64,000 nucleotides of DNA. Source: an uncultured Bacteroidales bacterium (GTDB taxonomy: Bacteria; Bacteroidota; Bacteroidia; Bacteroidales; FEN-979). Position numbers and translations under genes: made by a program. The notes under the pieces are model-generated. The model saw nothing but the letters and a program-made list of their open reading frames with translations. It was not told the origin of the DNA and ran no database searches. Shown here in pieces: positions 14,011-48,734 of the stretch. Where the stretch lies: assembly GCA_903875045.1 (NCBI GenBank), contig CAIQUS010000175.1, forward strand, positions 10,409-74,408. Direction: 5' to 3'. Every line of letters starts with the position of its first letter. Position 1 is the first letter of the stretch.

Positions 14011-16101
14011 ATGAAAACTAAACCAGACCTAAATAAACCGGGCACTGATGTAGTAAAAGACATACAACTGAGTGATATTTTCGATATTGACGAGATACAG
14101 CACCTGCAGGATTTATTTTCAGATGCCATGGGTGTCGCGTCCATTATCACCCATCCGGATGGTACGCCAATAACGAAACCGAGTAATTTCTGCAGGTTGT
14201 GCAATGACATTATCCGTAATACAGAAAGAGGACGTGCAAATTGCTATCAGTCGGATGCAATTCTTGGTCGTATGAGCACTTCAGGGGCAATTGTGCAGCC
14301 TTGCCTGAGCGGAGGTTTATGGGATGCAGGAGCCGGCATTGCTGTGGGCGGTAAAAATATTGCCAACTGGTTAATCGGACAGGTACGGAACGAGGAATTG
14401 GATGAGCAGCGAATGATTCGGTACGCCGATGAGATTGGTGCAAACAAAGAAGAGTTCATGGCGGCGTTGAGGGAAGTCCCGATGATGTCCCTTGACCAGT
14501 TTAAAAAAGTTTCGAATATGCTTTTTGCATTTGCCAATGAACTTTCACAAAAGGTTTACAACAATTTTCAACTGAAAATGCAAAATGCTGCACATGAAGA
14601 TGCATTGAACGCATTACGTGAAAGTGAAGAGTTTAACCGCCAAATCATGCAGAATGCCAACGAAGGTATTTGGATGGTTGACATGAATGAAAATACAACC
14701 TACATCAACAGTAAAATGGCGGATATGTTAGGCTATACTGTTGAGGAGATGACCGGAATGAATGTGTCTGACTTTCTGATTCCTGAAGATATCCAGGATC
14801 ACAGAGATAAAACATTTCAGCGGATGGCCGGGAACCCCGGTCATTATGAGCGGCGAATTAAACAAAAAAACGGAGAGGAAATATGGACGATTGTTTCTTC
14901 AAGTTCAATCATCGATAAAACAGGTGTTTATTCCGGTTCGCTCGGTATGTTTCAGGACATCACTGAGCGTAAACAAGCTGAGGAAAAAATCAAAAAAATC
15001 GGACTCCATTATCAGGCCATCATTGAAAAAGCACCTGACGGGATTGTACTGATCAATAACGACGGAGCATTTATCTACGTCAGCCCTGCGGCTGCGAAGA
15101 TGTTCGGACTCAGTGTTGAAGAGGCGATTTCCCGTCACCCCAATGACTACACACATCCTGATGATTTGCCTATGGTTTTAGGCGAATTATTCAAGTTGCT
15201 TGAAGATCCTTCATATACTCCAACCCTGCAATACCGTTTCGCCGATAACACCGGAAACTGGAAATGGATTGAAAGTACGATGAGTAATTTGCTTGCTGAT
15301 CCCAATGTTGAAGCGATTGTGATTAATTTCCGTGATATCTCTGACCGAAAACAGTCAGAAAAAGAGCTACGTGAATTAAACAATGAATTGGATACACGTG
15401 TTCAACAACGTACAACTGAACTGGAGGCAGCCATTAAAGAGCTTGAAACATTTTCCTACTCTGTTTCACATGACCTGAAAGCGCCATTGAGGCACATCAA
15501 TGGATTTCTTGAGATTTTTCTTGAAAAAACATCTGCAAACTTCACGGAAGAAGAACTTGGTTATCTGAAAAACATTTCCCGTTCTGCATCGGAAATGGGG
15601 CTGCTGATTGATGCAATCCTCTCCTTTTCGAGGCTCAACCAGGCTGAATTACGAAAAACCAGAATCCAGTCCTCTGTAATGGTCCGGCAAGTTATTAATT
15701 TCTTTGAACCGGAAATACAAAACAGGCAGATTACTTTCCATGTTGAGCCACTTCATGATGTTCAAGGTGATGAAGGCCTTATCAGGCAAGTATGGACCAA
15801 CCTGATTTCAAATGCGATCAAATATACCGGTAAAAAGTCTGAAGCGATAATCGAAATTGGCAGTTTCTCAACCCCAACTGAAACTGCTTTTTTTGTAAAA
15901 GACAACGGCGCAGGGTTTAACATGAAATATGTACATAAATTATTTGGTGTTTTCCAACGGCTGCATAAGTCACGTGAATTTGACGGGATAGGGATCGGAT
16001 TGGCCAATGTTAACCGAATCGTTAAGCGTCATGGGGGCCATTGCCGGGCCGAAGGCGAACAGGATAAAGGTGCGACTTTTCACTTTAGTATACCGGATTA
16101 A
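14011..16101 (+). CDS. sensor histidine kinase: PocR - PAS - PAS - HisKA/HATPase (class-A transmitter)
   Basis: PocR-type domain (IFDIDEIQHLQDLFSDAMGVASIITHPDGTPITKPSNFCRLC...ANCYQSD...QPCLSGGLWDAG...GQV). Two PAS S-boxes. H-box FSYSVSHDLKAPLRHINGF, N-box NLISNAIKYTG, G-boxes DNGAGF and GIGIGLANV. Confidence 0.9.
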   Translation: MKTKPDLNKPGTDVVKDIQLSDIFDIDEIQHLQDLFSDAMGVASIITHPDGTPITKPSNFCRLCNDIIRNTERGRANCYQSDAILGRMSTSGAIVQPCLSGGLWDAGAGIAVGGKNIANWLIGQVRNEELDEQRMIRYADEIGANKEEFMAALREVPMMSLDQFKKVSNMLFAFANELSQKVYNNFQLKMQNAAHEDALNALRESEEFNRQIMQNANEGIWMVDMNENTTYINSKMADMLGYTVEEMTGMNVSDFLIPEDIQDHRDKTFQRMAGNPGHYERRIKQKNGEEIWTIVSSSSIIDKTGVYSGSLGMFQDITERKQAEEKIKKIGLHYQAIIEKAPDGIVLINNDGAFIYVSPAAAKMFGLSVEEAISRHPNDYTHPDDLPMVLGELFKLLEDPSYTPTLQYRFADNTGNWKWIESTMSNLLADPNVEAIVINFRDISDRKQSEKELRELNNELDTRVQQRTTELEAAIKELETFSYSVSHDLKAPLRHINGFLEIFLEKTSANFTEEELGYLKNISRSASEMGLLIDAILSFSRLNQAELRKTRIQSSVMVRQVINFFEPEIQNRQITFHVEPLHDVQGDEGLIRQVWTNLISNAIKYTGKKSEAIIEIGSFSTPTETAFFVKDNGAGFNMKYVHKLFGVFQRLHKSREFDGIGIGLANVNRIVKRHGGHCRAEGEQDKGATFHFSIPD

Positions 16102-16113
16102 CAACGGATTCAA

Positions 16114-18582
16114 ATGAAAGAGGAACCAAAAAGAAAAAACAAAAAGACTGAAAATTTAATTGAGATTCAGTTTATTGACCTTTTTAACCTTGAAAAGGTC
16201 CAGCAGATGCAGGATCTTTTTGCAGATGCTACGGGTGTGGCTTCAATCATAACGCATCCCGATGGTACGCCTATTACGAAACCCAGCAATTTTTGCAGGC
16301 TTTGCAAGGATATCATCCGAAAAACTGAAAAAGGGCTTGCAAACTGTTATCATTCTGATGCAGTGCTTGGTAGTCACAGTAATAGCAAACCTGCGGTTCT
16401 GCCTTGTCTGAGCGGAGAATTATGGGACGCCGGAGCACAAATTACTGTTGGTGATAAGCATATTGCAAACTGGTTAATCGGGCAGGTCAGGAATGAGGCC
16501 TTGGATGAACAGCGTGTTATTCAGTATGCCGATGAAATCGGGGTCAATCAGGATGATTTTTTGGCAGCGCTGCGCGAAGTCCCGGTAATGCCGGTTGATC
16601 AGTTTGAAAAAGTATCGAAATTGCTTTTTTCTTTGGCAATGGAATTTTCTGAAAAAGCACTCAGTAATCTTCAATTGAAATTACAGACGGATGAACAAGA
16701 AAAGGCCAAAGAGACGATCCGTGAAATTGAATGGTTTAACAAGCGTATCATTGAAACAGCCAATGAAGGAATCTGGGTTCTGGATACAGATTACAATACA
16801 ACCTTCCTGAATGCCAAAATGGCTGGAATGCTTGGATATTCGATTGAAGAGGTAATGGCCATGAAAATGACTGAATTTATTTTCCCCGACGATCATCTGG
16901 ATCATCTTGAAAAAAGGGCTCAGCGTGTTGCAGGGAAACCTGGTTTTTATGAGCGTAAGTTTAAACAAAAAAATGGCTCGGCAATATGGACACTTGTATC
17001 ATCTACACCAATCATTGATGAGGATGGCACTTTTATCGGTTCCTTCGGCATGATCCTGGACATCAACGAACGCAAGAAGGCAGATGAAGAACTTCTGGAA
17101 AGGAAAATCAAGTACAGGGGATTGAGTGAAGCAGCTTTTGAAGCGATTTTTTTCTCCGAAAAGGGCATTTGCATTGAACAGAACCAAACTGCAGAAAGGA
17201 TGTTTGGTTATACTTCTGAGGAAGCCATTGGCAGGTATGGAACTGACTGGATAGTACCTGAAGACAGGGCCATGGTCATGGAAAATATGGTGCGAGGCTT
17301 CGAGGAACCTTATGAAGCAACCGCATTAAAAAAAGATGGCACCACGTTCCCTTGCATGTTACGTGGCAAGATGATGCATTACAAAGGGAAAAATGTCCGG
17401 GTTACATCGTTAAACGATATTACCGTTCGCAAACAAACGGAGATTGCGCTCAAGGAGAGCGAGGCACGATTCAGAAACCTGTTGGAAGAGGTAGAATCTG
17501 TCTCCATTCAGGGGTATGGGCCTGATGGTACCACACAATACTGGAACCAGGCTTCGGAGCATTTGTATGGATACACAGCAGAAGAGGCAATCGGAAACAA
17601 CCTCCTTGACCTCATCATACCACCAGAATTACGCGGGGATGTTAAGCAGGCAATCCAGTGGATGGCTGAAACCGGTAAGTCGGTTCCTTCATCGGAATTA
17701 TCTCTGATGCGCAAGGATGGTTCTCGTGTCCCGGTTTTCTCCCACCACACCATCATTAAACTACCCGGCAGGAAGCAGGAATTATTCTGCATTGACATGG
17801 ACCTTACCGAGCGAAAAAAGTCAGAAAACGAGATCCATCAATTGAACCTGGAATTGGATCAACGTGTCATTCAACGCACTGCACAGCTGGAATCTGCCAT
17901 CAGGGAACTTGAATCTTTTTCCTATTCCGTGTCACATGATTTGAAAGCGCCATTGAGGCACATCAACGGATTTCTGAAACTCTTTCTTGAAAACATTTCA
18001 GTCGAACTGACCAGGGAAGAACTTGGGTATTTGAATAAGGTGACTGTTGCAGCAATTGAAATGGAACACCTGATTGATGCAATACTTTCATTTTCAAGAC
18101 TAAATACCACAGAGTTACGAAAAACAACCATTCATTCAACCTTGCTGGTTAAACAGGTAGTCAAATTCTTCGAACAGGAAACATCACAACGAATAATTGC
18201 CTTCAACATCGCCCCCCTGCCCGATATTATGGGCGATGAAGGGATGATCCGGCAAGTATGGACAAACCTGATATCAAATGCAATAAAGTATACAGGTAAA
18301 CTTTCCGAAGCCGTCATTGACATTGGCAGTGAAACTTTGGATGACAAAACAACTTTTTTTATCAAAGATAACGGAGCAGGGTTCAACATGAAATATGCTG
18401 ATAAACTTTTCGGGGCATTCAAAAGACTGCATTCAGCAAGGGAATTCGAAGGTATAGGGATCGGGTTGGCCAATGTTAACCGGATTGTCAGGCGCCACGG
18501 AGGGCACTGCCATGCCACAGGCGAACAGGGTAACGGGGCTACTTTTTATTTTTCAATACCAAACCAACCACCTAATACCTGA
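16114..18582 (+). CDS. sensor histidine kinase: PocR - PAS x3 - HisKA/HATPase (class-A transmitter)
   Basis: The N-terminal ~170 aa are a close paralog of the PocR domain in the preceding gene, with the same four Cys. Three PAS modules follow, then the H-box FSYSVSHDLKAPLRHINGF. Confidence 0.9.
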   Translation: MKEEPKRKNKKTENLIEIQFIDLFNLEKVQQMQDLFADATGVASIITHPDGTPITKPSNFCRLCKDIIRKTEKGLANCYHSDAVLGSHSNSKPAVLPCLSGELWDAGAQITVGDKHIANWLIGQVRNEALDEQRVIQYADEIGVNQDDFLAALREVPVMPVDQFEKVSKLLFSLAMEFSEKALSNLQLKLQTDEQEKAKETIREIEWFNKRIIETANEGIWVLDTDYNTTFLNAKMAGMLGYSIEEVMAMKMTEFIFPDDHLDHLEKRAQRVAGKPGFYERKFKQKNGSAIWTLVSSTPIIDEDGTFIGSFGMILDINERKKADEELLERKIKYRGLSEAAFEAIFFSEKGICIEQNQTAERMFGYTSEEAIGRYGTDWIVPEDRAMVMENMVRGFEEPYEATALKKDGTTFPCMLRGKMMHYKGKNVRVTSLNDITVRKQTEIALKESEARFRNLLEEVESVSIQGYGPDGTTQYWNQASEHLYGYTAEEAIGNNLLDLIIPPELRGDVKQAIQWMAETGKSVPSSELSLMRKDGSRVPVFSHHTIIKLPGRKQELFCIDMDLTERKKSENEIHQLNLELDQRVIQRTAQLESAIRELESFSYSVSHDLKAPLRHINGFLKLFLENISVELTREELGYLNKVTVAAIEMEHLIDAILSFSRLNTTELRKTTIHSTLLVKQVVKFFEQETSQRIIAFNIAPLPDIMGDEGMIRQVWTNLISNAIKYTGKLSEAVIDIGSETLDDKTTFFIKDNGAGFNMKYADKLFGAFKRLHSAREFEGIGIGLANVNRIVRRHGGHCHATGEQGNGATFYFSIPNQPPNT

Positions 18583-18589
18583 TAAAAAA

Positions 18590-19240
18590 ATGCCAATGAT
18601 CGATAATAAACTTTTTTTAACCTATCAATCCAGTCTGCTTTCTGGCTCCCGATCGGGCTGCACTCAGATTGTGAACGGTCTGATCAAGTCGGAAATATCA
18701 ATCAAAGAACTGTATATCAATCTTTTTCAGCGTTCGATGTACGAAGTGGGAACCCTTTGGGAACAAAACAAAATATCCGTAGCAACAGAACACCTGTGTA
18801 CATCGGTTACCGAATACCTGATCAGTCTGTGCTACCCTTCGATTTTCTCGGCGGAACATACCGGTAAAAAAGCTATCATAACTTGTACGCCAGGCGAATA
18901 TCATCAGATCGGTGCACGAATGGTAGCCGACTATTTCGAACTTCATGGATGGGATGGCTATTATTTAGGGGCAGATACGCCTGCAGATGAACTGATCAAG
19001 TTTACAACTGAAAAACTCCCAGACCTGATGGCCATTTCCATCAGTGTTTCATTCAACCATGCCAACCTGCTCCGGCTGGTTGATAAAATACGGCATACCT
19101 TTCCCGACCTGACCATTTTGGTTGGCGGACAGGGATTCAGATGGGGAGGCGACGAGGCGTTCCAATCTTTGGAAAATATTTATCTCATCAGGTCCCTCGA
19201 TGAACTTGAAACGAAATTCTTAAATCCCCAGGCAACATGA
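18590..19240 (+). CDS. stand-alone cobalamin (B12)-binding domain protein, CarH/AerR-like
   Basis: Four-helix-bundle motif W-x9-E-H (LWEQNKISVATEHL, nt 18758-18793). Rossmann-type B12 motif E-x-H-x-x-G (GEYHQIGARMV, nt 18896-18913). Start at MPMIDNK (18590), 7 nt after the previous stop. Confidence 0.8.
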   Translation: MPMIDNKLFLTYQSSLLSGSRSGCTQIVNGLIKSEISIKELYINLFQRSMYEVGTLWEQNKISVATEHLCTSVTEYLISLCYPSIFSAEHTGKKAIITCTPGEYHQIGARMVADYFELHGWDGYYLGADTPADELIKFTTEKLPDLMAISISVSFNHANLLRLVDKIRHTFPDLTILVGGQGFRWGGDEAFQSLENIYLIRSLDELETKFLNPQAT

Positions 19241-20358
19241 TGCCCGAAACCTCCCCTATCCTTGCCGACTACATCATGCGCGATTCTACCATGGTTTTCC
19301 TTATCATTGGTAAAGAAGGGAACATTTTGGAATCCAACAATTTTACTGATGCACTTGTTGGTAAGAAGTTAAAAGGCCTTGCATTAAATGAGCTTTTTAT
19401 TGATTTCGGCAAGGCTCTTGACCTGGATCAGCTCTTGAAAGAATCCACTGAAAAAACACTTGTGAACCTTTCTACAGCAGCAAATCTTCCTGAAACGTAT
19501 TACTTCCGGTTTTACGATCTTGGCAACACCATACTAGCTCTGGGTGAAGCCAATAATTATGAGATCGGGCTTTTGCGCAAAAGCATGTTGGAGTTAAACC
19601 AGGAACTGAACAACCTTACCCGGGAACTTCAAAAAAAGAATGCAGAGTTAAAGAAACTCAACGAACTGAAAAACCAATTCCTTGGTATTGCTGCGCATGA
19701 TCTGAGGAATCCGATCGGGATCATCATGGGTTATAGTGATTTTCTTTTGGAAGAATTGATCGAAGAACTTACGCCTGATCAGATTGTAATGCTGGAAACC
19801 ATTCAGAATACAAGTGAGTTTATGCTGCATTTACTGAATGAACTCTTAGACCTCAGCGCCATTGAATCGGGTAAACTGAGATTAGAAAAACAAAAATCAG
19901 ACATTTCAGCCCTGATCAGGAAAAATATCACCATCAATGGTGTTATCGCGGCAAAAAAGAATATTCAAATTCAGATGCAGTCTTTTGAATCCATTCCCGA
20001 TGTATTGTTTGATGAAAACAAAATCGAACAGATACTTAACAACTTGATTAGCAATGCTATAAAATTTTCATTGGCTGGTACGACGGTCAGAGTAAATCTC
20101 TTTTTAACCGGCGACCATGTTACCGTGGCGGTGGCCGATCAGGGCCAGGGTATCCCGCCTCACGAAATTGACAGGTTATTTAAACCATTTCAGGTTACCA
20201 GCGTAAAAAGTACAGGGGGTGAAAAATCAACCGGACTGGGGCTGTCGATCGTACGGAATATTATCCTGGGGCATGGTGGTAAGATATGGGTTGAGAGCAA
20301 GGTCGGTGTCGGGTCGACGTTTTACTTTTCACTCCCCCTCCTGCGACCTAGCCCGTAA
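19237..20358 (+). CDS. histidine kinase with degenerate PAS-like N-terminal domain, translationally coupled to the B12-binding protein
   Basis: Its ATG overlaps the upstream stop (ATGA). H-box FLGIAAHDLRNPIG, N-box NLISNAIKFS, G-boxes DQGQGI and GLGLSIV. Confidence 0.9.
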   Translation: MMPETSPILADYIMRDSTMVFLIIGKEGNILESNNFTDALVGKKLKGLALNELFIDFGKALDLDQLLKESTEKTLVNLSTAANLPETYYFRFYDLGNTILALGEANNYEIGLLRKSMLELNQELNNLTRELQKKNAELKKLNELKNQFLGIAAHDLRNPIGIIMGYSDFLLEELIEELTPDQIVMLETIQNTSEFMLHLLNELLDLSAIESGKLRLEKQKSDISALIRKNITINGVIAAKKNIQIQMQSFESIPDVLFDENKIEQILNNLISNAIKFSLAGTTVRVNLFLTGDHVTVAVADQGQGIPPHEIDRLFKPFQVTSVKSTGGEKSTGLGLSIVRNIILGHGGKIWVESKVGVGSTFYFSLPLLRPSP

Positions 20359-20422: not shown

Positions 20423-20866
20423 ATGACAAAAGATGATTTAATTTTAAAAGCTGAGGCGCTAAGGCAGCCATCGGATCTATCGGCAAAAGAATTTAACGAA
20501 AAAGGTCAGTTTCTGGCTGCAGAAATGAACCGGCTGATGCTTACACGAACTGACCTTGATAACCTGATCGGTCAGGGCAATATCACAATGATGGAGGATA
20601 ACCACCGGAACCATGCCCGGTTCATGTCATCTGTATTTATCTGTTTCCAACCCGATGTTCTTGTTGAAACAGTACTTTGGGTATACAGGGCCTACCGTGC
20701 CCATGGATTTCACCTCACCTATTGGCCTGCTCAGCTCGATCAATGGGTTGAACTTTTGAAGGTACAGCTGTCACCTGAAACGTTTCAGGAAATTTACCCT
20801 TTCTATCATTGGATGATCATCCACCAGTCGGCATTTGTAAATGAAAGCGATAAAATGAGAGGTTAA
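20423..20866 (+). CDS. hypothetical all-alpha His/Trp-rich protein
   Basis: 147-aa ORF in the same transcriptional direction, with small gaps on both sides. I recognise no family. Notable segments are MEDNHRNHARFM, YRAYRAHGFHLTYWP and FYHWMIIHQ. Confidence 0.6.
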   Translation: MTKDDLILKAEALRQPSDLSAKEFNEKGQFLAAEMNRLMLTRTDLDNLIGQGNITMMEDNHRNHARFMSSVFICFQPDVLVETVLWVYRAYRAHGFHLTYWPAQLDQWVELLKVQLSPETFQEIYPFYHWMIIHQSAFVNESDKMRG

Positions 20867-25878: not shown

Positions 25879-25954
25879 CACCTCAACCCCCAACCCCTTC
25901 TCCTCAAGGAGAAGGGAAAATTCCCTCTCCTTGAAGAGAGGGTTGAGTGAGGTG
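25879..25954. repeat. GC-rich nested-hairpin element (family F1), complete copy
   Basis: Outer arms cacctcaaccc ... gggttgagtgaggtg enclose two hairpins: cccttctcc-tcaa-ggagaaggg (25895-25916) and ccctctc-cttgaa-gagaggg (25923-25942). Confidence 0.75.
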
Positions 25955-25982: not shown

Positions 25983-26450
25983 ATGGAAAACCAACCGGCA
26001 GAAATTTTCTGTTTCACCATCGAAAATCAACAGTTTGCGATTCCTTTGACCTGTGTCGACCAGGTTCTTATGGCCGTTGCTGTATCTCCCGTGCCGAATT
26101 CTTCCGAACTTTTACATGGGCTCATCGATTACCATGGAACCCTGGTAGCTGTTATTAACCTTAGGTTCAGACTAAAATTGCCTTTAAAGCCCATCCGCAT
26201 CAGCAACAGATTTATCATTGCCAATACCTCCAAACGGAAAATTGCCCTCGTGGCCGATGAAGTATATGGTGTTATTGTACCTGAGATTAAGGACCTGATT
26301 TCGGCTGATGACCTGGACACTGATTTGGAAGCCACCGGAATTCTCCGTCGTGATGACGGAATCATCCTCATCTATGATATTGAAGGCTTTCTTTCCAATC
26401 AGGATGAAATTTTAATATATGATACAATTGATAATACAATAAATGAATAA
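25983..26450 (+). CDS. cheW: CheW-like coupling protein
   Basis: 155-aa single CheW domain (FAIPLTCVDQVL...LHGLIDYHGTLVAVINLR...IALVADEV). Confidence 0.85.
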   Translation: MENQPAEIFCFTIENQQFAIPLTCVDQVLMAVAVSPVPNSSELLHGLIDYHGTLVAVINLRFRLKLPLKPIRISNRFIIANTSKRKIALVADEVYGVIVPEIKDLISADDLDTDLEATGILRRDDGIILIYDIEGFLSNQDEILIYDTIDNTINE

Positions 26451-27964: not shown

Positions 27965-28477
27965 ATGAAAGATGAACAGTTGATTCTTCAGGAGCGTGCA
28001 AAAAAGATTGCAGGATGGAAAACTGAATTGACATCAAAAGGCGAATCGCTTGTGGTGGTTGAATTTCAGCTTATTCCTGAAAGATATTGCATTGCCGGTT
28101 CCTTTGTTACAGAGGTTTTACCTCTCAAAGCAATCACGCCGATTCCCGGTGTTCCTGCCTTTGTTCTTGGTGTGATGAATGTACGGGGAAAAATCATCTC
28201 CATCATCAACCTTAAAACCTTCTTCAACCTGAAAGAGACAGGTATTACTCAACTGAATAAGATTATCATCGTCAAACAAAACCAAATGGAATTTGCAATA
28301 GTGACCGATGCAATAACAGGGACACGCGAAATTTTACTGAGCAGCCTGAGCGCTCCCCCGGTCACACTCAGTGGCATTGGTGCTGATTATATAAAAGGTG
28401 TCACACCCGATGGGCTTATTCTGCTCGACATTGCGACGGTTTTATCAAGTAAATCAATCATTGTAAATCAAAAATAA
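27965..28477 (+). CDS. cheW: CheW-like coupling protein (second copy)
   Basis: 170-aa CheW domain (YCIAGSFVTEVLPLKAITPIPGVPAFVLGVMNVRGKIISIINL). Confidence 0.85.
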   Translation: MKDEQLILQERAKKIAGWKTELTSKGESLVVVEFQLIPERYCIAGSFVTEVLPLKAITPIPGVPAFVLGVMNVRGKIISIINLKTFFNLKETGITQLNKIIIVKQNQMEFAIVTDAITGTREILLSSLSAPPVTLSGIGADYIKGVTPDGLILLDIATVLSSKSIIVNQK

Positions 28478-32276: not shown

Positions 32277-32306
32277 AAGACACTCCCCTGCGCTTTGAGG
32301 AGAAAG

Positions 32307-32444: not shown

Positions 32445-32480
32445 AGTGGTAAAACAGAAGTGTGACGAGGTAAGAATAAA

Positions 32481-40697: not shown

Positions 40698-40773
40698 AAA
40701 ACAGCAGGAAAATATCATAGTAACCAGGGTCATTCAAAAGGGTAATGTCATGATTGCGTAAGGCTTGTCATAT

Positions 40774-42558
40774 ATGATTAATAACTTACAAATGAGAAAT
40801 TTAGGCATATATTCACGAATACTGATCATGATCATATTAACCGGTCTGTTTTTCTTAATTCTTTTAACAATATTTTACCTGACGAACAAGAAGCAGGAAG
40901 ATTTATTACATCGTTCATCCCAGGCGCAGTACAACAATGAAGTGAACTCTTTACTCATACTAAAAACAGCAACGATCAAACAAGTTGTGTTTGATTATAC
41001 TTTCTGGAATGAATTTGTGGCAAATATCTATAAAAACGATACCGTTTGGTTCGAAAATAACATTTCAACCGTTCTCAAATCCTTCCATTTTGACTATATA
41101 TGTGTTTTTGACACCAATTTTAATCTTGTTCATGAAGCTTCTGAAGGAGGAATTGTTACGCCTGGTTTTATTTCCAGTGAAATTTTGAAAGAGGTCAGAA
41201 AAACAAAATTCATACACTTTTTTCAAAATACGGATAATGGATTGATTGAGATTAGTGGTGCCACCATTCATCCCGACAATGATCCTTCACACACCCTCAC
41301 AAAACCAAGTGGTTATTTATTCATAGTGAAAAGCTGGAATCGAAACTTTCTGGAGCAATTGATGGAGCTTAGTGTTTCAAAAATTGAGATCTACTTTCAT
41401 TCTGATTCGATCCCCAACAATGATCCTAACGCCATTGCGGCAGTAAAACGACTCCCCGGCTGGAATGATGAATGCGCAGCCCAGATCGTTTTTACAAGAA
41501 CCCTCACTTCCTTCCAGCTATACCATAAAATGTCAGTGGTAATCATGCTGGTCATGTTAGGCTCTGTGTTGGGTACCTGGTTTGTTTTTCATATGATGAC
41601 ACGAAAGTTGATCAATGAACCATTAAAACTGGTAACACATATCCTGAAAACGGGAAGTCTGAAACATATCAGTGAACTTCAGCAGTGCAAAGGTGAGTTC
41701 AGGGATATCGGGATGCTTTTTAGCAATTTCATTAACCAGAAGGATCAGCTCAGGCTTGCCAAGGAAAATGCGGATGAGGCTCACAACCGATACATCACTG
41801 AACGATTGCAGGCAGATAAAGAAATTCTTGAATTAAATGAGAATCTCGACCATCTTGTCAAACAACGTACAGCCGAACTTGAAACCGCAAACAGGGAGCT
41901 TGAAACTTTCTCGTTCTCTGTTTCACATGATTTAAAAACGCCATTAAGGCATATTACCGGGTATATTGGTCTTTTTACAGAAAGTAAATCAGCAGAACTC
42001 ACTGAGGACGAATCAGGATACCTTAAAAAAATTACCATTGCAGCCACACAGATGTCCCAGCTGATTGATGCATTGTTGACATTTTCAAGGCTCAACCTTA
42101 CCCAATTGAGAAAAACAAAGATTTCTTCAAATGATATGGTTCTTCAGGTTCTTAACTTCTTTGAACCGGATCTGACAAATCGAAAAATCTCATTCAACAT
42201 AGCACCTCTGCCCGATATAAAAGGCGATGAGGATATGATCCGGCAAGTCTGGACGAACCTGATATCAAATGCAATAAAATATACCGGCAAAAAACCTGAA
42301 GCAATTATTGAAATTGGCAGTGAGACAAATAACGGCGAAACAACCTTTTTTGTGAAAGATAACGGTGCAGGCTTTAACATGAAATACGCCGAAAAATTAT
42401 TTAATGTTTTCCAGCGGTTGCATAAACCCAGGGATTTTGAAGGAATCGGGATTGGACTAGCCAATGTAAACCGGATCGTAAAGCGCCATGGGGGCCAATG
42501 TCGCGCCGAAGGTGAGCCGGACAAAGGAGCAGTGTTCTATTTTAGTTTACCGGAATAA
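40774..42558 (+). CDS. CHASE4-like extracytoplasmic sensor histidine kinase (class-A transmitter)
   Basis: TM1 ILIMIILTGLFFLILLTIFYL. A sensor segment with the CHASE4-like pattern DYTFWNEFVANIYKND...FDYICVFDTNFNLVHEA. TM2. H-box FSFSVSHDLKTPLRHITGY. Start ATG 40774 or 40792; the track gives TTG 40765. Confidence 0.85.
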   Translation: MINNLQMRNLGIYSRILIMIILTGLFFLILLTIFYLTNKKQEDLLHRSSQAQYNNEVNSLLILKTATIKQVVFDYTFWNEFVANIYKNDTVWFENNISTVLKSFHFDYICVFDTNFNLVHEASEGGIVTPGFISSEILKEVRKTKFIHFFQNTDNGLIEISGATIHPDNDPSHTLTKPSGYLFIVKSWNRNFLEQLMELSVSKIEIYFHSDSIPNNDPNAIAAVKRLPGWNDECAAQIVFTRTLTSFQLYHKMSVVIMLVMLGSVLGTWFVFHMMTRKLINEPLKLVTHILKTGSLKHISELQQCKGEFRDIGMLFSNFINQKDQLRLAKENADEAHNRYITERLQADKEILELNENLDHLVKQRTAELETANRELETFSFSVSHDLKTPLRHITGYIGLFTESKSAELTEDESGYLKKITIAATQMSQLIDALLTFSRLNLTQLRKTKISSNDMVLQVLNFFEPDLTNRKISFNIAPLPDIKGDEDMIRQVWTNLISNAIKYTGKKPEAIIEIGSETNNGETTFFVKDNGAGFNMKYAEKLFNVFQRLHKPRDFEGIGIGLANVNRIVKRHGGQCRAEGEPDKGAVFYFSLPE

Positions 42559-42571: not shown

Positions 42572-44062
42572 ATGACGAAAAAATATCTGCTATACATGGT
42601 CATCATCTGGGTAATGGTGATCACAATATCATTCTCCTGGAATTATTACATCATCAGATCCGGTACGTTAGAACTTGTTATGAACAAGGCACATTCATTT
42701 TTCAGCCAGATAGTTGTTACCCGGGCCTGGAATTCATCACATGGCGGAATATACGTGCCGGTAACGGTAAAAACTCAGCCAAACCCTTATTTAAGTGATT
42801 CATTGAGGGATGTAGTCACCATTGATGGCTTAAAACTGACCAAAATCAATCCGGCATTTATGACTCGTCAAATTGCTGAAATCAATAATGTTGAGAATGA
42901 GTTGCGGTTTCATATCACCAGTTTGAATCCGATCAGGCCGGGAAACATAGCCGATCAATGGGAAAATAAGGTGTTGAAGGGGTTTGAACGGAATAAAGAT
43001 GAAATTCTGGAATTGGTGCAAAACGACTCTGTGTCCGAATACCGTTACATGGCACCTTTGATAACAGCTAAAAGTTGTCTGAAATGCCATGCCGTTCAAG
43101 GGTATGAGGAGGGCGACATCAGAGGGGGTATCAGTATTTCCTTCCCTTCAGCCCTTTATACAAATTCACAGGAGAGTCAGACATTTTACCTGTTAACAGC
43201 CCATTTACTGATTCTGATCCTTGGGCTTGCAGGATTGGCAAAATATTACAAAACAACCAGCCATTACTTTTCCGTGATTAAAATAAAAAATGATGAATTG
43301 GAAACCGAACGTAATTTGCTTCGTCAGGCCAACCTTGATTTGTCGAGACTGGTAGCCGAAAAGGATAAGTTTTTTTCAATCCTTGCACATGACCTGCGAA
43401 ACCCGTTCAATGGTTTTTTAGGGTTGACCGAGGTGATGGCCGATGATTTGCCCGATATGACCAGGGATGAAATTCATGGCATGGCTTTGAGCCTCAAGAA
43501 ATCGGCGATAAACGTATTCGGTCTTTTGGAAAATCTGCTTGACTGGTCGAGGATGGAACAAGGGTTGATTCCTTTCAATCCTGCTGAGATACAAATTCTT
43601 CCGATCATTGAGGAAAGCATTGTACCGGCCATGGAAGTTGCTAAAAATAAAGAGATCGGAATAACTTACGATATTCCGTCTGATTTAGTTGTTTTTGCTG
43701 ATCCAAATTTCATCCAGGCCATCGTCCGGAATCTTGTAATGAATGCGGTGAAATTTACTCCCCGGGGAGGCTTGGTCACAATTTCTGCTAAACCAACTGC
43801 ACATCGATTCATCGAAATTGCCATTCAAGATTCTGGCATCGGTATGTCGGAAGATATGGTTGATAATCTGTTTCACTTTGATGGTCAGACAAATAGAAAA
43901 GGGACAGCGGGTGAACCCAGTTCCGGCCTGGGATTGCTGATCTGCAAGGATTTTATCGAAAAGCATCACGGCAAGATGAGCGTAGAGAGTAAAGAAGGAT
44001 TAGGAAGTACTTTTTATTTTACATTACCAATCGGAAATGAACATGAAAAATCTGATCATTGA
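42572..44062 (+). CDS. c-type-heme (Tll0287/DUF3365-like) sensor histidine kinase (class-B transmitter)
   Basis: TM anchor, then the DUF3365 pattern NPAFMTRQ...LNPIRPGNIADQWE...YRYMAPLITAKSCLKCHAVQGYEEGDIRGGISISFP, with CxxCH at nt 43076-43090. TM2. H-box FFSILAHDLRNPFNGFLG. Confidence 0.85.
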   Translation: MTKKYLLYMVIIWVMVITISFSWNYYIIRSGTLELVMNKAHSFFSQIVVTRAWNSSHGGIYVPVTVKTQPNPYLSDSLRDVVTIDGLKLTKINPAFMTRQIAEINNVENELRFHITSLNPIRPGNIADQWENKVLKGFERNKDEILELVQNDSVSEYRYMAPLITAKSCLKCHAVQGYEEGDIRGGISISFPSALYTNSQESQTFYLLTAHLLILILGLAGLAKYYKTTSHYFSVIKIKNDELETERNLLRQANLDLSRLVAEKDKFFSILAHDLRNPFNGFLGLTEVMADDLPDMTRDEIHGMALSLKKSAINVFGLLENLLDWSRMEQGLIPFNPAEIQILPIIEESIVPAMEVAKNKEIGITYDIPSDLVVFADPNFIQAIVRNLVMNAVKFTPRGGLVTISAKPTAHRFIEIAIQDSGIGMSEDMVDNLFHFDGQTNRKGTAGEPSSGLGLLICKDFIEKHHGKMSVESKEGLGSTFYFTLPIGNEHEKSDH

Positions 44063-44108: not shown

Positions 44109-46514
44109 ATGAAAGGGAGCCTGACCCGGGATAAAATGGCTGAAATTATCCTGGTATTGTTTCTGACACTCACTTCAACAACTTTGCAAGGCCAGCAATT
44201 TTCGGCTGAGAAGAATGTATACACCGTTGCCATTGACAAAGAATATGAACCGTATGAATTTTTAAACCATGAAAACCACGCAGATGGTTTTACAACTGAT
44301 CTGTTAAGGGAAATCGGCCTCGCTACCGGCATAACTTTTACTTTTATTCCGATGACATGGAGTGAAGCATTTACGGCATTTAACCAGGGGAAAGTTGATC
44401 TGGTCAATATGATTTACACCCCCGAACGAGCCATGCTTTACGATTTTTCAATACCTCACAGTCAAATCACACAGGCTCTTTTTCGTGCAGAAAATGCTCC
44501 CGGCATTCAAAATATATCTTCTTTAGCCGGTCATCGTATTGGTTTTCAAGAAAATGACATTTCGCTGACGAATTTCGCAAACCGTACCGACTTTAAAAAA
44601 GTTATTTTCAATTCCAAGTTAGACGGTCTGTTAAATATTAATATTGGTGAAATAGATGCTTTTTTCTGTGCGCAGCAGCCTGGTATCAGCATCATACTCA
44701 AGTACAATTTTAAAAATGTAGACCTCGCAGAAGGAGAACTCTTCTCACAAAATTTCGCCTTTGCAACCCATAAGGGAAAGCCTGGTCTCATTGGCTTGCT
44801 CAATCATCAGATCAATGAATTAGAGGCTTCCGGAAAATTGCAGGCACTCCAGGACAAATGGCTTTCAAGAAAGCTCAGTGTTCCTGGCTGGAAGGAAAAA
44901 AACCAGGTTTTCCTTTTGACGCTGGGAGGTATCCTGTGCGGATCCTTCATTTTACTTCTGATTTGGACCAGAAGTTTACAGAGCCGGGTATTGTCTAAAA
45001 CAAAGTCATTAAAAGCGAGTGAGGAACGATTCAGGCTGTTATTTGAAGGAGCACCGGATGCCATGATCCTTACTGATGCGGTAACCTGGAACGTGCTTGA
45101 AGTAAACAATGCTACTTGCCGGTTATTGGGAAAAGACCGCGAAGATATCATTGGGATTCACCAATCTGACCTGCATCCACCTCATCTGGAATTAAGTTCA
45201 AAAAAGATATTTGAAAATCATTTACTTGATTTACAGGTTCATGGGTTTACCCAGCCGGCTGAGACTGTCATTCTTCGTTCTGATGGTGCAGAAGTTCCCG
45301 TTGAAATACTCTCCCAGATAATTCAGATTAATGAACGTCCTGTGGTCATGGGCACATTTCGTGATATCACCGGGAGAAAGCAGGCAGAAATGGCTGCACG
45401 TGACAGTGAACGAAAAGTCAATAACATACTTGAAAAATCACCATTCCACATCTGGGCATTTGACGGAGAGATCTACAATTATGTAAATAAAGCATACTTT
45501 GATTATACCGGTTTGGAAAAAACCAAAACGTTAACACCTGAAACATGGACAAATTATGTTCATCCCGATGATTTGGCCGAAGCCGGAAAAATATGGGCGA
45601 ACGCATGGAGTTACCAGGTTGAGCATGATAATTATTTCCGGTTGATCAGCAAGGAAGGCATCTACAGGGATTTTTGGTGTCATGCTGTACCTATTTTTGA
45701 TGAACAGGGAAAATTCAAAATGTTTCAGGGTTTCAATATCGACATTACCGATCGTACAAAGGCTGAAAAAGCGCTTAACCAGTTAAATGTGGAATTGGAT
45801 CAGCGTGTTAAACAACGTACTGCCGAACTTGAAGACGCGAACAAGGCACTTGAATCTTTTTCCTATTCTGTTTCGCACGATTTGAAAGCACCTTTAAATC
45901 ATATCAAAGGGTTTATCAATCTTTTCTTTCAAAACAGTTCCACCGAACTAACAGAAGAAGGACAGGAATATTTGAAAAAGATCACTGCGGAAGCAACCCA
46001 CATGGGAAACCTGATTGAAGCCATGCTGGCTTTTGCGCGGCTGACGTTAGCTCCCTTGCAAAAAACCAGGATACATTCATCAGATATGGTGCAGCAGGTG
46101 ATTCATTTTTATGCCCCGGAATTGGAAAACAGAAACGTCACATTTAAAGTGGCACCCTTGCCGGATATTTACGGAGATGAAGACCTCCTCAGGCAGGTGT
46201 GGGCCAACTTCATCTCGAATGCCATTAAATATACTGGCAGGAAGGCAGAGGCAGTCATAGAAATAGGTGCCATCGTCACCAAAAGTGAAACAACTTTCTT
46301 TATTAAGGATAACGGCGCCGGTTTTCACATGAAGCATGCTGAAAAATTATTCGGAGTTTTCCAACGATTGCATAAAATGAGTGATTTCGAAGGTGTTGGG
46401 ATCGGACTTGCCAACGTGAACAGGATTGTATTCCGTCATGGTGGCACCTGCCGCGCTGAAGGAGAACCGGAAAAAGGAGCAACCTTTTATTTTTGCTTAC
46501 CCAACTCAACTTAA
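44109..46514 (+). CDS. periplasmic solute-binding (SBP_bac_3) - TM - PAS - PAS histidine kinase (class-A transmitter)
   Basis: Venus-flytrap-like domain (YTVAIDKEYEPYEF...GFTTDLLREIG...MTWSEAF...GKVDLV). TM FLLTLGGILCGSFILLLIW. Two PAS modules. H-box FSYSVSHDLKAPLNHIKGF. The start is uncertain: 44109, 44136, or the track's 44037, which overlaps the previous gene. Confidence 0.85.
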   Translation: MKGSLTRDKMAEIILVLFLTLTSTTLQGQQFSAEKNVYTVAIDKEYEPYEFLNHENHADGFTTDLLREIGLATGITFTFIPMTWSEAFTAFNQGKVDLVNMIYTPERAMLYDFSIPHSQITQALFRAENAPGIQNISSLAGHRIGFQENDISLTNFANRTDFKKVIFNSKLDGLLNINIGEIDAFFCAQQPGISIILKYNFKNVDLAEGELFSQNFAFATHKGKPGLIGLLNHQINELEASGKLQALQDKWLSRKLSVPGWKEKNQVFLLTLGGILCGSFILLLIWTRSLQSRVLSKTKSLKASEERFRLLFEGAPDAMILTDAVTWNVLEVNNATCRLLGKDREDIIGIHQSDLHPPHLELSSKKIFENHLLDLQVHGFTQPAETVILRSDGAEVPVEILSQIIQINERPVVMGTFRDITGRKQAEMAARDSERKVNNILEKSPFHIWAFDGEIYNYVNKAYFDYTGLEKTKTLTPETWTNYVHPDDLAEAGKIWANAWSYQVEHDNYFRLISKEGIYRDFWCHAVPIFDEQGKFKMFQGFNIDITDRTKAEKALNQLNVELDQRVKQRTAELEDANKALESFSYSVSHDLKAPLNHIKGFINLFFQNSSTELTEEGQEYLKKITAEATHMGNLIEAMLAFARLTLAPLQKTRIHSSDMVQQVIHFYAPELENRNVTFKVAPLPDIYGDEDLLRQVWANFISNAIKYTGRKAEAVIEIGAIVTKSETTFFIKDNGAGFHMKHAEKLFGVFQRLHKMSDFEGVGIGLANVNRIVFRHGGTCRAEGEPEKGATFYFCLPNST

Positions 46515-46598
46515 CCCCAAACCCAAGGGTGGATGTTCTCCCCTTCTCCAGGCGAGGCATCATATTCACTTTTGAGAATACAACTAACAGACAACCTC

Positions 46599-48299
46599 AT
46601 GAACAACCACCAAAAAACGAAGGAAGAACTTATTCAGGAATTACGGGAATTGCAGCAGGAAAATAATAGAATTTCATCCCTGAATGCGATCAGCAAGGCT
46701 GAAAGAGAAGAAGCGGAGAAGGCATTGAGAGTGAGTGAAGAAAGATTCCGCACCCTTTTTGAACGCACTGTAAACGGCGTACGCATTGTAAACCAGGAAG
46801 GTTTTATTATCGAAGAAAACCGGGCTATGTCTGAAATTACCGGCATTCCAAACGAGCAAACCATTGCCAGACCAATTTGGGATATTCTTTTTCGACAAAC
46901 TCCATTTGCCAGCCAAACACCTGAAACGTATAGCCGGATCAAGGAGGCTATAGCAAAGATCCTTCGTGAAGGGAGATTTCCTGAAAATTGGATAACATTG
47001 ACGAACAATTTACAATCTGCAGATGGATCCTTAAAAACCGTCAAATCGAACTATTTTTCAGTAAAAACACCATACGAAACCTTGTTTTATGCAATTGTCC
47101 ATGATGTAACTGATATTGTAAAAGCTCATGACGAATTGCTTGCTGCAAAAACCGAAATTGAAAAAAGCGAAGAAACATATCGTAAAGATCTCATCCTGTT
47201 ACATTCCATTTTTGAAAGCCCGATGGATATCATCATTTTTGCACTCGATACCAATTATTGTTACACCGCTTTTACCAAATTTCATAGTCAGACCATTAAA
47301 AAGATTTGGGGGGTTGATATTCAGATTGGAATGAACATGCTTGATGTAATTTTAAGACCCGATGACCGGGAAAAGGCGAAGAAAAATTTTGATAGGGTTT
47401 TAAATGGGGAGAAATTTATTTTGACTGAGGAATATGGCGATCAGGAACGGTACAGAACTTTTTACGACAATCATTACAGTTGTATTAAAAATTCAGATGG
47501 TCAAGTCGTTGGCATATCGGTTTTTGTGATTGATGTAACACAGCGCAGGCAGGCAGAAATTAGCATTAACCAGTTAAATGAAACCCTTGAAGACCGGATC
47601 GCTGAGCGCACCAATGAACTTGAACTCAAAATGAAGGAAATTGAACAATTTACCTACATCGCATCCCACGACCTTCAGGAACCGCTCCGGACAATGATTA
47701 CCCTGACAAGGCTTCTTCAGGAAGAGAACGCCGGAAAATTAAATGAGGATGGAAATAAATCCATTGAATTGATTTCCAATTCAGCAATCCGCATGAATGA
47801 ATTGGTCAAGGGATTACTCGACTATTCCTTTCTTGGGCAGGAACGGGTTTTAACAAAGGTTGATTGCAGCAAAATTGTTGGTGAAGTACTTTCTGACATG
47901 GCTGATTCCATCAGGATAAGTCAGGCAAAAATAACCCTGTGTGAACTCCCATTCGTTGATGGTTATGCGACAGAATTAAGATTGTTGTTCCAGAACCTTA
48001 TCAACAATTCGATCAAATTCCGCTCAAAAGAAAAATTCCCTGAGATAAAAATTTCAGCCGGCGATAGGGAAAAAGATTATATCTTTACAATTGAGGATAA
48101 TGGCATCGGTATTCAGGCAAGCGACAAAGAAAAAATTTTCATCATCTTCAAACGCACTCACAACCGGAATGAATATGAGGGAACGGGTATTGGCCTGGCG
48201 CATTGCAAAAAAATAGTAAAATTGCATGGAGGGAAGATTTGGGTGGAATCCACACCCGGTATCGGAAGTGCATTTAGTTTTACAATCCCAAAACAGTAA
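46599..48299 (+). CDS. cytoplasmic PAS - PAS histidine kinase (class-C transmitter)
   Basis: Start at MNNHQKTKEEL (46599). PAS S-boxes (RFRTLFERTVNG and LLHSIFESPMD). H-box FTYIASHDLQEPLRT. TGIGLAHCKKIVKLHGG. Confidence 0.9.
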   Translation: MNNHQKTKEELIQELRELQQENNRISSLNAISKAEREEAEKALRVSEERFRTLFERTVNGVRIVNQEGFIIEENRAMSEITGIPNEQTIARPIWDILFRQTPFASQTPETYSRIKEAIAKILREGRFPENWITLTNNLQSADGSLKTVKSNYFSVKTPYETLFYAIVHDVTDIVKAHDELLAAKTEIEKSEETYRKDLILLHSIFESPMDIIIFALDTNYCYTAFTKFHSQTIKKIWGVDIQIGMNMLDVILRPDDREKAKKNFDRVLNGEKFILTEEYGDQERYRTFYDNHYSCIKNSDGQVVGISVFVIDVTQRRQAEISINQLNETLEDRIAERTNELELKMKEIEQFTYIASHDLQEPLRTMITLTRLLQEENAGKLNEDGNKSIELISNSAIRMNELVKGLLDYSFLGQERVLTKVDCSKIVGEVLSDMADSIRISQAKITLCELPFVDGYATELRLLFQNLINNSIKFRSKEKFPEIKISAGDREKDYIFTIEDNGIGIQASDKEKIFIIFKRTHNRNEYEGTGIGLAHCKKIVKLHGGKIWVESTPGIGSAFSFTIPKQ

Positions 48300-48305
48300 A
48301 CAACC

Positions 48306-48734
48306 ATGAAGAAATTAAACTGTGTATTGCTTGTGGACGATAACGAGTCTGACAATTTTATTCACAAAAGGGTTCTTGAAAAATCCGAGATCACCAAAAG
48401 CATTGCTGTTGCCCTGAACGGTCAGGAAGCGCTTGATTTTCTTAAAACAAAAATTAACAAGCCACAATCGGAAGATGCATATTGTCAGCCTGATTTGATT
48501 TTTCTGGATATCAACATGCCGGTCATGGATGGGTGGGAGTTTCTTGATGAATATCATAAACTTGAAAATGATCAGAAAGGGAAAGTGGTTTTTATCATGC
48601 TCACAACCTCTTTGAACCCGGTCGACAGGAGCAGAGCCGAACAAATGATTACCGGCGGATGTTTTCAGTTCAAACCCCTTACCCAGGAAATGATTAATAC
48701 CATCATGAAGATTCACTTTCCGGAATACCTTTAG
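48306..48734 (+). CDS. single-domain (receiver-only) response regulator
   Basis: 142 aa: LLVDDNESDN...LIFLDINMPVMDGWEF...IMLTTS...FKPL. There is no output domain. It begins 6 nt after the preceding kinase, the same architecture as Rcp1-type partners of SHDLQEPLR-type kinases. Confidence 0.9.
   Translation: MKKLNCVLLVDDNESDNFIHKRVLEKSEITKSIAVALNGQEALDFLKTKINKPQSEDAYCQPDLIFLDINMPVMDGWEFLDEYHKLENDQKGKVVFIMLTTSLNPVDRSRAEQMITGGCFQFKPLTQEMINTIMKIHFPEYL

Follow-up and report, generated by a model that had tools for sequence, protein, structure and literature searches.

A histidine-kinase-rich island around a conserved Che-like cassette in an uncultured Bacteroidales bacterium

Can 13 histidine kinases (HKs) and a chemotaxis-like (Che) pathway, encoded side by side and accompanied by no recognisable output domain, form a single machine for the integration of signals, and, if not, what are they and where does their output lie? 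The question is raised by positions 14011-48734 of a 64,000-nucleotide stretch of DNA (hereafter the window; contig CAIQUS010000175.1 of assembly GCA_903875045.1, positions 10,409 to 74,408) from an uncultured member of the Bacteroidales that has Prolixibacteraceae and Draconibacterium as relatives, for which an initial annotation, made without database searches, had proposed such a machine. The reading that we prefer, and to which we give a probability of roughly 60%, is that this 34.7-kb island is a mosaic, assembled around a conserved seven-gene Che-like cassette and holding in addition a light-sensor cassette and kinases accreted in this lineage, with an output that lies elsewhere or in a lone receiver. 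The domain content, the conservation pattern, the paralogy of the kinases, and the globin fold with its B12 fusions are direct observations of this study.

The Che-like cassette and its relatives

The core of the island, at 25983-34858, consists of the following genes, in which REC denotes a receiver domain:

25983..26450, plus strand: CheW1 (Pfam)
26454..27932, plus strand: CheR methyltransferase with C-terminal TPR (Pfam; CheR 75-251, TPR 379-458)
27965..28477, plus strand: CheW2 (Pfam)
28550..30043, plus strand: methyl-accepting chemotaxis protein (MCP) with a periplasmic four-helix-bundle (4HB) sensor and two transmembrane (TM) segments (Pfam, TM-like segments)
30051..32276, plus strand: CheA-REC hybrid with Hpt (His in HSLKG), HATPase, CheW and REC domains and without P2 (Pfam, N-terminal sequence)
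32481..33587, plus strand: CheB, REC and methylesterase (Pfam)
33599..34858, plus strand: HK6, REC-HisKA-HATPase, terminal gene of the Che-like cassette (Pfam, synteny)

Orthologues of this CheA, 46-71% identical, occur in 15 loci (L003-L017) of metagenome-assembled genomes (MAGs) from Bacteroidales, Prolixibacteraceae, and Draconibacterium, which were compared over up to 10 kb of sequence on each side. The sole constant block in the resulting synteny map is CheW-CheR-CheW-MCP-CheA(REC)-CheB-[REC-HisKA-HATPase]. Most loci have it whole; L009 lacks CheR, contig ends truncate L013 and L017, and CheW1 has a match in 13 of the 15, the others being L007 and L013, the contig of which begins inside the MCP gene. 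In each of the 14 related loci whose sequence continues beyond cheB, the REC-kinase follows cheB directly, with 58-81% identity to HK6; in nearly every locus no other cassette gene is conserved as well, and within the REC-kinase the receiver and the linker from the receiver to the dimerization and histidine phosphotransfer (DHp) domain are the most conserved parts (68-88%). Five loci (L005, L007, L009, L015, and L016) hold no other REC or kinase gene in the available sequence, which reaches no more than 10 kb to either side and in L009 stops some 300 nt past the REC-kinase, and the downstream neighbours, where checked (L005, L010, L015, and L016), encode Abi, LolA, alpha-galactosidase, and SPOR/TPR proteins.

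The kinases around this block vary from locus to locus. REC-HK-REC hybrids resembling HK5, the gene upstream of cheW1 in the window, are present in 9 of the 15 loci: orthologues with 62-78% identity stand immediately upstream of cheW in L003, L008, L014, and L017, shorter versions of about 645 aa are found upstream in L004, L010, L011, and L012, and one lies downstream on the opposite strand in L006. Judged by this recurrence in gene order, HK5 is a recurrent accessory of the Che cassette. HK4 has orthologues in L017 (69%) and L003 (59%), and HK9 has one in L014 (65%). L014 also carries the upstream flank of the window (acyl-CoA dehydrogenase and outer membrane protein genes), and L008 its downstream end, namely the lone receiver (72% identity, same end position), HGLS, and a hydrolase. 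Because each of these two loci shares one flank and yet holds only a handful of kinases, the island sits at a conserved chromosomal site and has been expanded in this lineage.

The comparison thus bears directly on the view that the whole 34.7 kb is one dedicated signal-integration machine, in which one or a few operons would unite the 13 kinases and the Che proteins in a single network with a common output. As a conserved entity this machine is not borne out, since only the seven-gene cassette is constant across the 15 loci, five species having it alone, and the kinase content differs even between loci at the same chromosomal site; the question of whether the island is conserved or lineage-specific receives a divided answer, the cassette being the former and the kinase array the latter. 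Speaking for the machine, L008 and L014 keep some accessory genes in the same order as the window, from a PocR kinase through HK5, the Che genes, and HK6 to a TPR kinase and on to the final receiver. We consider a single machine unlikely.

The layout of the island is a further argument on its side. The open reading frame (ORF) listing gives an unbroken series of plus-strand genes only, as first described, which after correction of six starts amounts to 22 tightly packed genes; 24 had been counted, although the products then listed also add up to 22. Coding density with the corrected starts is 97.6%, the spacers run from -4 to 108 nt apart from one 204-nt gap filled by a repeat, in agreement with the initial annotation, and the gaps contain no plus-strand terminator-like hairpins. 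Of the corrected starts, 30051 and 34866 are backed by gene calls on independent contigs, 23583 by orthologue alignments, and 18590 by homologue length, and 42572 and 44109 are the first in-frame ATG past the preceding stop. Single-strandedness itself does not set the island apart as had been supposed: the plus-strand run extends to 61959, 13 kb further, through unrelated metabolic genes (OmpA, HGLS, hydrolase, FAD oxidase, a protein sorted by the type 9 secretion system (T9SS), PyrB/PyrI, and Schlafen-like), so that co-orientation is a regional property rather than a mark of the island.

Two copies of a GC-rich palindrome of about 75 nt, which resembles repetitive extragenic palindromes (REPs) or miniature inverted-repeat transposable elements (MITEs), lie in opposite orientation on either side of cheW1-cheA, in the only two gaps of the island that are large (25875-25982, 108 nt, and 32277-32480, 204 nt):

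25879..25950, minus strand: REP/MITE-like palindromic element in the HK5-cheW1 gap (repeat search, RNA fold)
32283..32451, plus strand: REP/MITE-like palindrome followed by a 3 x 31-nt tandem, in the cheA-cheB gap (repeat search, RNA fold)

The predicted RNA hairpins have energies of -45.6 kcal/mol (z -5.7) and -81.4 kcal/mol (z -4.8), respectively. The second copy with its tandem is also present in the independent assembly L001, and the repeat is absent from the cheA-cheB gap of L008 and L014; the element might terminate, attenuate, or stabilise transcripts. Scans of the island for sigma-70 promoters and intrinsic terminators returned counts at the level of shuffled sequence and, the sigma-70 consensus being ill-suited to Bacteroidota, carry no information; the Bacteroidetes-type motif TTTG-N17-23-TAnnTTTG has three matches in the window and none in the island, which is chance level. 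An assembly artefact can be ruled out, as independent JGI and ENA contigs (L001 among them) encode an identical HK6 next to the same genes and have the 204-nt gap as well.

A different proposal makes the cassette a motility pathway, controlling gliding in the manner of Frz, with the single receiver encoded at 48306 as its CheY, in contact with a gliding or T9SS motor. The Frz pathway of M. xanthus has the same composition as the cassette (two CheW, MCP, CheA-REC, CheR-TPR, and CheB), the host carries T9SS-sorted proteins (Por_Secre_tail domains in proteins of the flanks, by Pfam), and one source labels the lone receiver CheY-like. That receiver, however, lies 13.4 kb downstream of the cassette, immediately behind HK13, and most relatives have no such receiver near the cassette; none of the related loci has a lone REC beside the cassette, the nearest being at the far 3' end of the L008 kinase array and, in L006, on the opposite strand some 3.5 kb downstream. 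What ends the conserved block is moreover a REC-kinase and not a CheY or an FrzZ-like protein, and no gliding genes adjoin the cassette in the window or in the relatives checked. A motility role consequently seems to us highly improbable.

Two observations concern the related loci themselves. In L010 (4112-5935, minus strand) and L016 (4135-5961, minus strand), a divergent gene close upstream of the Che-like cassette encodes a soluble protein in which an Fe-only-hydrogenase large-subunit-like domain and 4Fe-4S motifs are joined to an MCP signalling domain. By its domains, this protein is a candidate chemoreceptor of the pathway, with redox state or H2 as its stimulus. L012 (SACF01000019.1), which is labelled as an Alphaproteobacteria MAG, is collinear with the Bacteroidales contig L011 and nearly identical to it in layout, and its label is probably a binning error.

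Kinases, transmitter families and the absent output domain

The remaining genes of the island, apart from a three-gene cassette at 18590-20866 that is treated in the following section, are these:

14011..16101, plus strand: HK1, PocR-PAS-PAS-HisKA-HATPase, transmitter family A (Pfam, transmitter alignment)
16114..18582, plus strand: HK2, PocR-PAS x3-HisKA-HATPase, transmitter family A (Pfam, transmitter alignment)
20894..23521, plus strand: HK4, REC-PAS-GAF(7 Cys)-PAS-HisKA-HATPase, transmitter family A (Pfam, Cys count)
23583..25874, plus strand: HK5, REC-PAS-PAS-HisKA-HATPase-REC hybrid (Pfam)
34866..37100, plus strand: HK7, 2-TM periplasmic sensor-HisKA-HATPase-REC-REC hybrid (Pfam)
37164..38690, plus strand: HK8, truncated PocR-PAS-HisKA-HATPase, transmitter family C (Pfam, transmitter alignment)
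38694..40697, plus strand: HK9, TPR-TM-HisKA-HATPase, transmitter family B (Pfam, transmitter alignment)
40765..42558, plus strand: HK10, CHASE4-HisKA-HATPase, transmitter family A (Pfam, transmitter alignment)
42572..44062, plus strand: HK11, Tll0287-like (CLKCH c-haem motif)-HisKA-HATPase, transmitter family C (Pfam, motif)
44109..46514, plus strand: HK12, SBP_bac_3-TM-PAS-PAS-HisKA-HATPase, transmitter family A, start at 44037 or 44109 (Pfam)
46533..48299, plus strand: HK13, PAS-PAS-HisKA-HATPase, transmitter family B (Pfam, transmitter alignment)
48306..48734, plus strand: single-domain response regulator with intact DD/D/T/K, 6 nt past HK13 (Pfam, catalytic residues)

Pfam reproduces nearly the whole inventory of the initial annotation: 13 kinases with HisKA and HATPase domains; CheA, two CheW, CheR-TPR, CheB, and one 4HB MCP; one B12-binding protein, a 147-aa protein without Pfam match, and one lone receiver; and, among the inputs, a Cys-rich GAF (7 Cys), CHASE4, Tll0287 with CLKCH, SBP_bac_3, TPR, a 2-TM periplasmic domain, and PocR in two intact copies and a degenerate third (positions 1-41 of 162). 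The inputs are indeed rich in PAS modules, of which some 14 are found instead of the 15 or so claimed. Nine receivers are likewise present, each with its phospho-acceptor Asp, the first receiver of HK7 lacking the Thr and Tyr switch residues, and the transmitter alignment finds the H, N, G1, and G2 boxes kept in all 13 kinases.

The absence of output domains, the most striking claim made for the island, holds across the whole 64-kb window: neither the island nor the 29 kb that flank it gave a match to HTH, GGDEF, EAL, HD-GYP, or any other effector domain (Pfam, E<=0.01), and the P1 domain of CheA is, as stated, the sole Hpt over the same span. Domain and length accounting leaves no space for a hidden Hpt in HK5 or HK7, and a classical His-Asp-His-Asp relay downstream of the hybrid kinases would find no Hpt domain or protein in the 64 kb besides CheA P1. 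A 2.7-kb contig obtained by exact-protein look-up toward sequence beyond the window carries no regulator. As the 64 kb hold no output domain or extra Hpt, we retain the suggestion of an output located elsewhere or exerted through protein contacts, but the missing output is also partly a matter of definition, because a REC-kinase is itself the usual output of the CheR-TPR pathway type. What is unusual is the density, 14 kinases in 35 kb with no effector-domain regulator. The remaining 29 kb of the window hold no kinase, a contrast that is far beyond chance and is in good part explained by paralogy.

Receivers N-terminal to the kinase core are confirmed in the proteins encoded at 20894, 23583, and 33599, and they fit the kinase-to-kinase signalling that had been proposed from them, a mechanism that has been shown experimentally for CheA3 to CheS3 of Rhodospirillum centenum (PMC3868531). 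Both these three kinases and the lack of a cognate DNA-binding regulator anywhere in the window can be counted in favour of a single machine.

Paralogy is evident from the aligned transmitter cores of the 13 kinases. Family A comprises HK1, HK2, HK4, HK10, and HK12 (61-73% identity), family B HK9 and HK13 (60%), and family C HK8 and HK11 (61%), so that nine kinases fall into three families whose members are 57-73% identical over 246-257 aa; this BLAST-similar block begins about 25 residues ahead of HisKA and reaches the C-terminus, and the sensors upstream of it are unrelated. The four others, HK3, HK5, HK6, and HK7, share only 27-32% identity with one another, and HK6 is closest to family A (38-44%). 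As three transmitter families carry unrelated sensors, the pattern indicates duplication with sensor shuffling, and perhaps convergence on shared partners. At the helix-1 positions H+7, +8, +11, +12, and +15, family A has R/N-H-G-F/Y-I/L and both hybrid kinases, HK5 and HK7, have N-G-G-F-L. Following Skerker and Laub, duplicated kinases that gain new partners reportedly tend to diverge at the specificity positions of DHp, and the retention of these residues within family A suggests common partners for its members. That nine kinases use only three transmitter types can again be read as support for a single network, against which stands the mutual dissimilarity of the four ungrouped transmitters.

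A different pairing is seen in L008 (14590-18262), where a CHASE4-like sensor with 47% identity to HK10 lies upstream of a PAS domain and a family-B-type transmitter (61% to HK9), unlike in the window, where CHASE4 is joined to a family-A transmitter (HK10). On the face of the alignments, either this is direct evidence that sensors and transmitters have been reshuffled, or the MAG sequence contains a frameshift.

Such duplication could also be all that there is to explain. The initial annotation had conceded that its interpretation would fail if arrays of this kind were ordinary paralogue clusters, and nine of the 13 kinases do belong to three paralogous families, so the concession is warranted in part. 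In its full form this explanation supposes an ordinary accretion of unrelated orphan kinases at a permissive site by tandem duplication, with the cassette and each kinase signalling on its own to separate regulators located elsewhere and nothing being integrated. The variable kinase content of the relatives, the paralogue families, the diversity of unrelated sensors, the portable modules that recur elsewhere (such as the photoglobin cassette described below), and the REP/MITE-like repeats in the gaps, which suggest a plastic region, are all as it would predict. It accounts less readily for the near-identity of the helix-1 residues of family A, where duplicates with new partners usually diverge, for the recurrence of HK5-like hybrids at the cassette in 9 of 15 loci, for the retention of the end receiver at the 3' end of the island in L008, and for 13 kinases without any cognate regulator, which is unusual for independent two-component systems. 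We regard accretion without integration as somewhat unlikely, and prefer the mosaic around the conserved cassette.

The B12-kinase-globin cassette

The genes set aside above form a compact group, the HK3 gene beginning within the B12 gene with an overlap of 4 nt:

18590..19240, plus strand: stand-alone protein with the domains B12-binding_2 plus B12-binding, 216 aa, photocobilin/CarH type (Pfam, PDB match)
19237..20358, plus strand: HK3, short soluble kinase with an N-terminal domain of about 135 aa without assignment, followed by HisKA-HATPase (Pfam)
20423..20866, plus strand: photoglobin-like (phycobiliprotein-fold) protein, 147 aa (AlphaFold2, Foldseek, fusions)

The 147-aa protein, first listed as unknown, still has no match in the family databases: Pfam gives none at E<=0.01, nor at E<=10 across 46 homologues, and NCBIfam gives none. 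Its homologues number 295, and among the matches listed (120) they are 56-100% identical to it and without any Pfam domain; the named sources include Deltaproteobacteria, Syntrophus, Planctomycetes, and Bacteroidota. An AlphaFold2 model built with 46 homologues reaches a pLDDT of 97.4, and of the top 50 Foldseek matches to this model nearly all are allophycocyanin, phycocyanin, or smURFP, itself derived from allophycocyanin, with TM scores of 0.53-0.68 and weak E values of 0.05-0.4. A profile search of 1.84 billion representative proteins retrieved 562 relatives, and in some of these, 366-382 aa in length (P0199, P0209, P0226, P0243, and P0253), the globin domain is fused N-terminally to the domains B12-binding_2 plus B12-binding. 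By its modelled fold and these fusions, the protein is a photoglobin-like globin, which we treat as a sensor partner, part of the input and not of the output, and the possibility that it is an Hpt or an output domain is ruled out by fold and gene context.

The B12 protein has photocobilin SasPcob (8J2W) as its best PDB match (E=1e-18), ahead of CarH (about 3e-9), and a partial NCBIfam match to CarH. Aligned to 8J2W, its Wx9EH cap reads GTLWEQNKISVATEH vs GVLWQANRWSVAQEH, and its ExHxxG motif with the His lower ligand reads GEYHQIG vs GEWHALP. The order B12 protein, kinase (about 370 aa), and globin is repeated in three unrelated contigs (L085, L086, and L087), with identities to the window versions of 49-50% for the kinase (full-length HK3 orthologues in L085 and L086) and 45-53% for the B12 protein; L086 and L087 have no other signalling gene nearby. 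The trio is best described as a putative three-gene light-sensor cassette, conserved across phyla. Its independence in unrelated genomes, together with its absence within 10 kb of the Che cassette in all 15 related loci, is a further argument against a single machine.

Photoglobins have been described as stand-alone globins related to phycocyanin, almost always located beside genes for B12-binding proteins and embedded in two-component systems (PMC8717448), and photocobilins bind adenosylcobalamin and biliverdin (PMC10979010). The cassette resembles both in coupling a CarH-type B12 module, with the Wx9EH and His-ligand motifs, to a phycobiliprotein-like globin, in placing the pair among two-component genes, and in that stand-alone globins beside B12-binding genes and fused forms both exist. 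It differs in that the B12 and globin parts are split into two genes with a kinase gene between them, and in that the globin is N-terminal to the B12 domains in the fused relatives.

Two other contexts of this globin were encountered. In P0152 (258 aa) a homologue is fused to a receiver domain, and at 3645-6267 of L083 a globin gene stands after a gene for a 440-aa kinase and before one for a receiver protein of 257 aa that has a Cys-rich motif at its C-terminus; the L083 array also holds a REC-SpoIIE protein, so that similar arrays elsewhere do carry an output.

Signal flow, known systems and the flanking region

For the steps that follow, we infer every phosphotransfer and every ligand. In the cassette, the membrane MCP would control CheA, with CheR and CheB providing adaptation, and phosphoryl groups would pass from CheA to its own receiver, to CheB, and, as the output step of the pathway, to the N-terminal receiver of HK6. 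By analogy with the route from CheA3 through CheS3 to CheY3 in R. centenum, phosphorylation of that receiver may switch the kinase or phosphatase activity of HK6 toward a regulator not encoded beside the cassette, perhaps the lone receiver at 48306. The genes at 18590-20866 would act as a split photocobilin, in which the B12 protein and the photoglobin-like protein gate HK3 by light or by the state of cobalamin. The remaining kinases would have been added in this lineage by duplication and sensor shuffling (type A five times, B and C twice each, with nine unrelated sensors), those with a common transmitter probably having a common partner and the others adding inputs in parallel. Family B probably serves the single-domain receiver, because HK13 ends 6 nt before it and the same adjacency of kinase and receiver is found in L008; family A, as the closest paralogues of HK6, may feed the same target as HK6. 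The hybrids HK5 and HK7 would phosphorylate their own receivers; in the absence of an Hpt, these may serve as sinks or regulatory switches, a role reported for the receiver of CheA3. The final output probably consists of the single-domain receiver acting through protein contacts, of orphan regulators elsewhere in the genome, or of both.

Several findings count against this mosaic reading. The very tight spacing and the hairpin-free gaps fit one or a few long operons equally well, and for that reason favour a more integrated unit. A few helix-1 specificity residues do differ within family A (Thr/Tyr in HK10 and Asn/Lys in HK12), and a shared transmitter is no proof of a shared partner. No partner of HK6 could be assigned in any genome examined, and the assignment of the core to the class of chemosensory pathways for "alternative cellular functions" (ACF) rests on architecture rather than on class-specific models. 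As for the globin, the profile of the 46 homologues matches no PDB chain, the 8J2W globin included, at E<=10 (HMMER; one spurious match), and these homologues have no invariant or near-invariant Cys, unlike photoglobin, for which a conserved distal Cys is reported; this subfamily departs from the described photoglobins and photocobilins in these respects, and for that reason we call the protein photoglobin-like only. The crystallised SasPcob, for its part, also lacks a Cys linkage (PMC10979010).

With that caveat of class, the core at 25983-34858 is by its domain architecture an ACF pathway: its CheA has a C-terminal receiver and no P2, its CheR is fused to TPR, and the cluster includes a multidomain response regulator. 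CheR-TPR marks ACF-type clusters; about 40% of the response regulators in CheR-TPR clusters carry HisKA and HATPase domains, and in REC-HisKA-HATPase regulators phosphorylation of the receiver has been suggested to modulate the autokinase (PMC3447774). The cassette is like the Wsp pathway of P. aeruginosa and P. putida and other CheR-TPR clusters in its set of CheA-REC, two CheW, CheR-TPR, CheB, and one MCP, and in ending in a multidomain response regulator without CheY or CheZ; it differs in that the terminal protein is a REC-kinase, whereas that of Wsp is REC-GGDEF, and in that the MCP gene is fourth in order instead of first. Bacteroidota are missing from the list of phyla with ACF pathways that PMC3447774 gives.

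Among studied systems, the Che3 cluster of R. centenum (PMC3868531, PMC4436063) is the nearest analogue, since it too is a single che cluster in which a CheA-REC hybrid is accompanied by another kinase whose receiver is N-terminal; CheA3 phosphorylates the receiver of CheS3, and only CheS3 phosphorylates CheY3, a single-domain receiver without output domain (PMC3868531). The analogy is one of mechanism and not of orthology: CheS3 is a REC-REC-PAS-HWE kinase and HK6 a REC-HisKA-HATPase protein without PAS, and cheY3 lies inside its cluster, whereas the conserved cassette includes no receiver gene.

To our knowledge, ACF Che-like pathways that end in a REC-kinase are common in genomes and almost unstudied, with R. 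centenum Che3 as the main example, and a literature search that combined Prolixibacteraceae with CheA found no paper on such a pathway in that family. ACF pathways with REC-kinase output, multikinase arrays, photoglobin/photocobilin sensors, and single-domain receivers are thus all known kinds of system, and what is new here, on the architecture described, is an ACF-type cassette in Bacteroidales. The locus offers a compact, conserved seven-gene version of this type in that order, a single lineage in which sensor modules have been shuffled onto three transmitter types, and a B12 protein, kinase, and photoglobin as three separate genes that could help to show how photocobilin-type sensors talk to kinases. 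It leaves current concepts unchanged and mainly supplies testable candidates.

Networks in which several kinases act on one single-domain receiver are represented by KinA-E and Spo0F of B. subtilis and by the alphaproteobacterial hub MrrA. The island is similar in having several orphan kinases with different inputs, no nearby DNA-binding regulator, and a stand-alone receiver as a candidate hub. It differs in that its convergence would follow from shared transmitter families, in that the window encodes no Hpt or Spo0B-like relay protein, and in that the kinase genes of the known networks are usually dispersed and not arrayed. A bolder proposal, which we put forward as speculative and improbable, is a multikinase hub in a non-flagellated Bacteroidales bacterium, where the ACF pathway through HK6, the five family-A kinases, and the split B12/photoglobin sensor would converge on one single-domain receiver or one orphan regulator. 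If true, the hub would compute a single decision, behavioural or developmental, from chemical, redox, haem, solute, and light inputs; no Che-like system of Bacteroidota would have been given a defined role before it, and a split photocobilin would for the first time be seen in a physiological context.

The flanks of the island in the window encode functions in transport and pyrimidine metabolism, a peptidase, carbonic anhydrase, T9SS cargo, and acyl-CoA dehydrogenase, and the Por_Secre_tail domains found there assign the host to Bacteroidota. Rfam returned no family at gathering score for the whole window, including a low-GC segment (0.37) with few ORFs at 6100-7960, between the carbonic anhydrase gene and the gene for a large T9SS-sorted protein. 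Over 48869-61959 the cumulative GC skew climbs along the same span as the plus-strand run, which suggests a regional strand bias rather than an operon signal. Near the end of the window, a 211-aa protein without Pfam match is flanked by Schlafen/AlbA_2 proteins encoded at 60654-61301 (plus strand) and 62029-63366 (minus strand).

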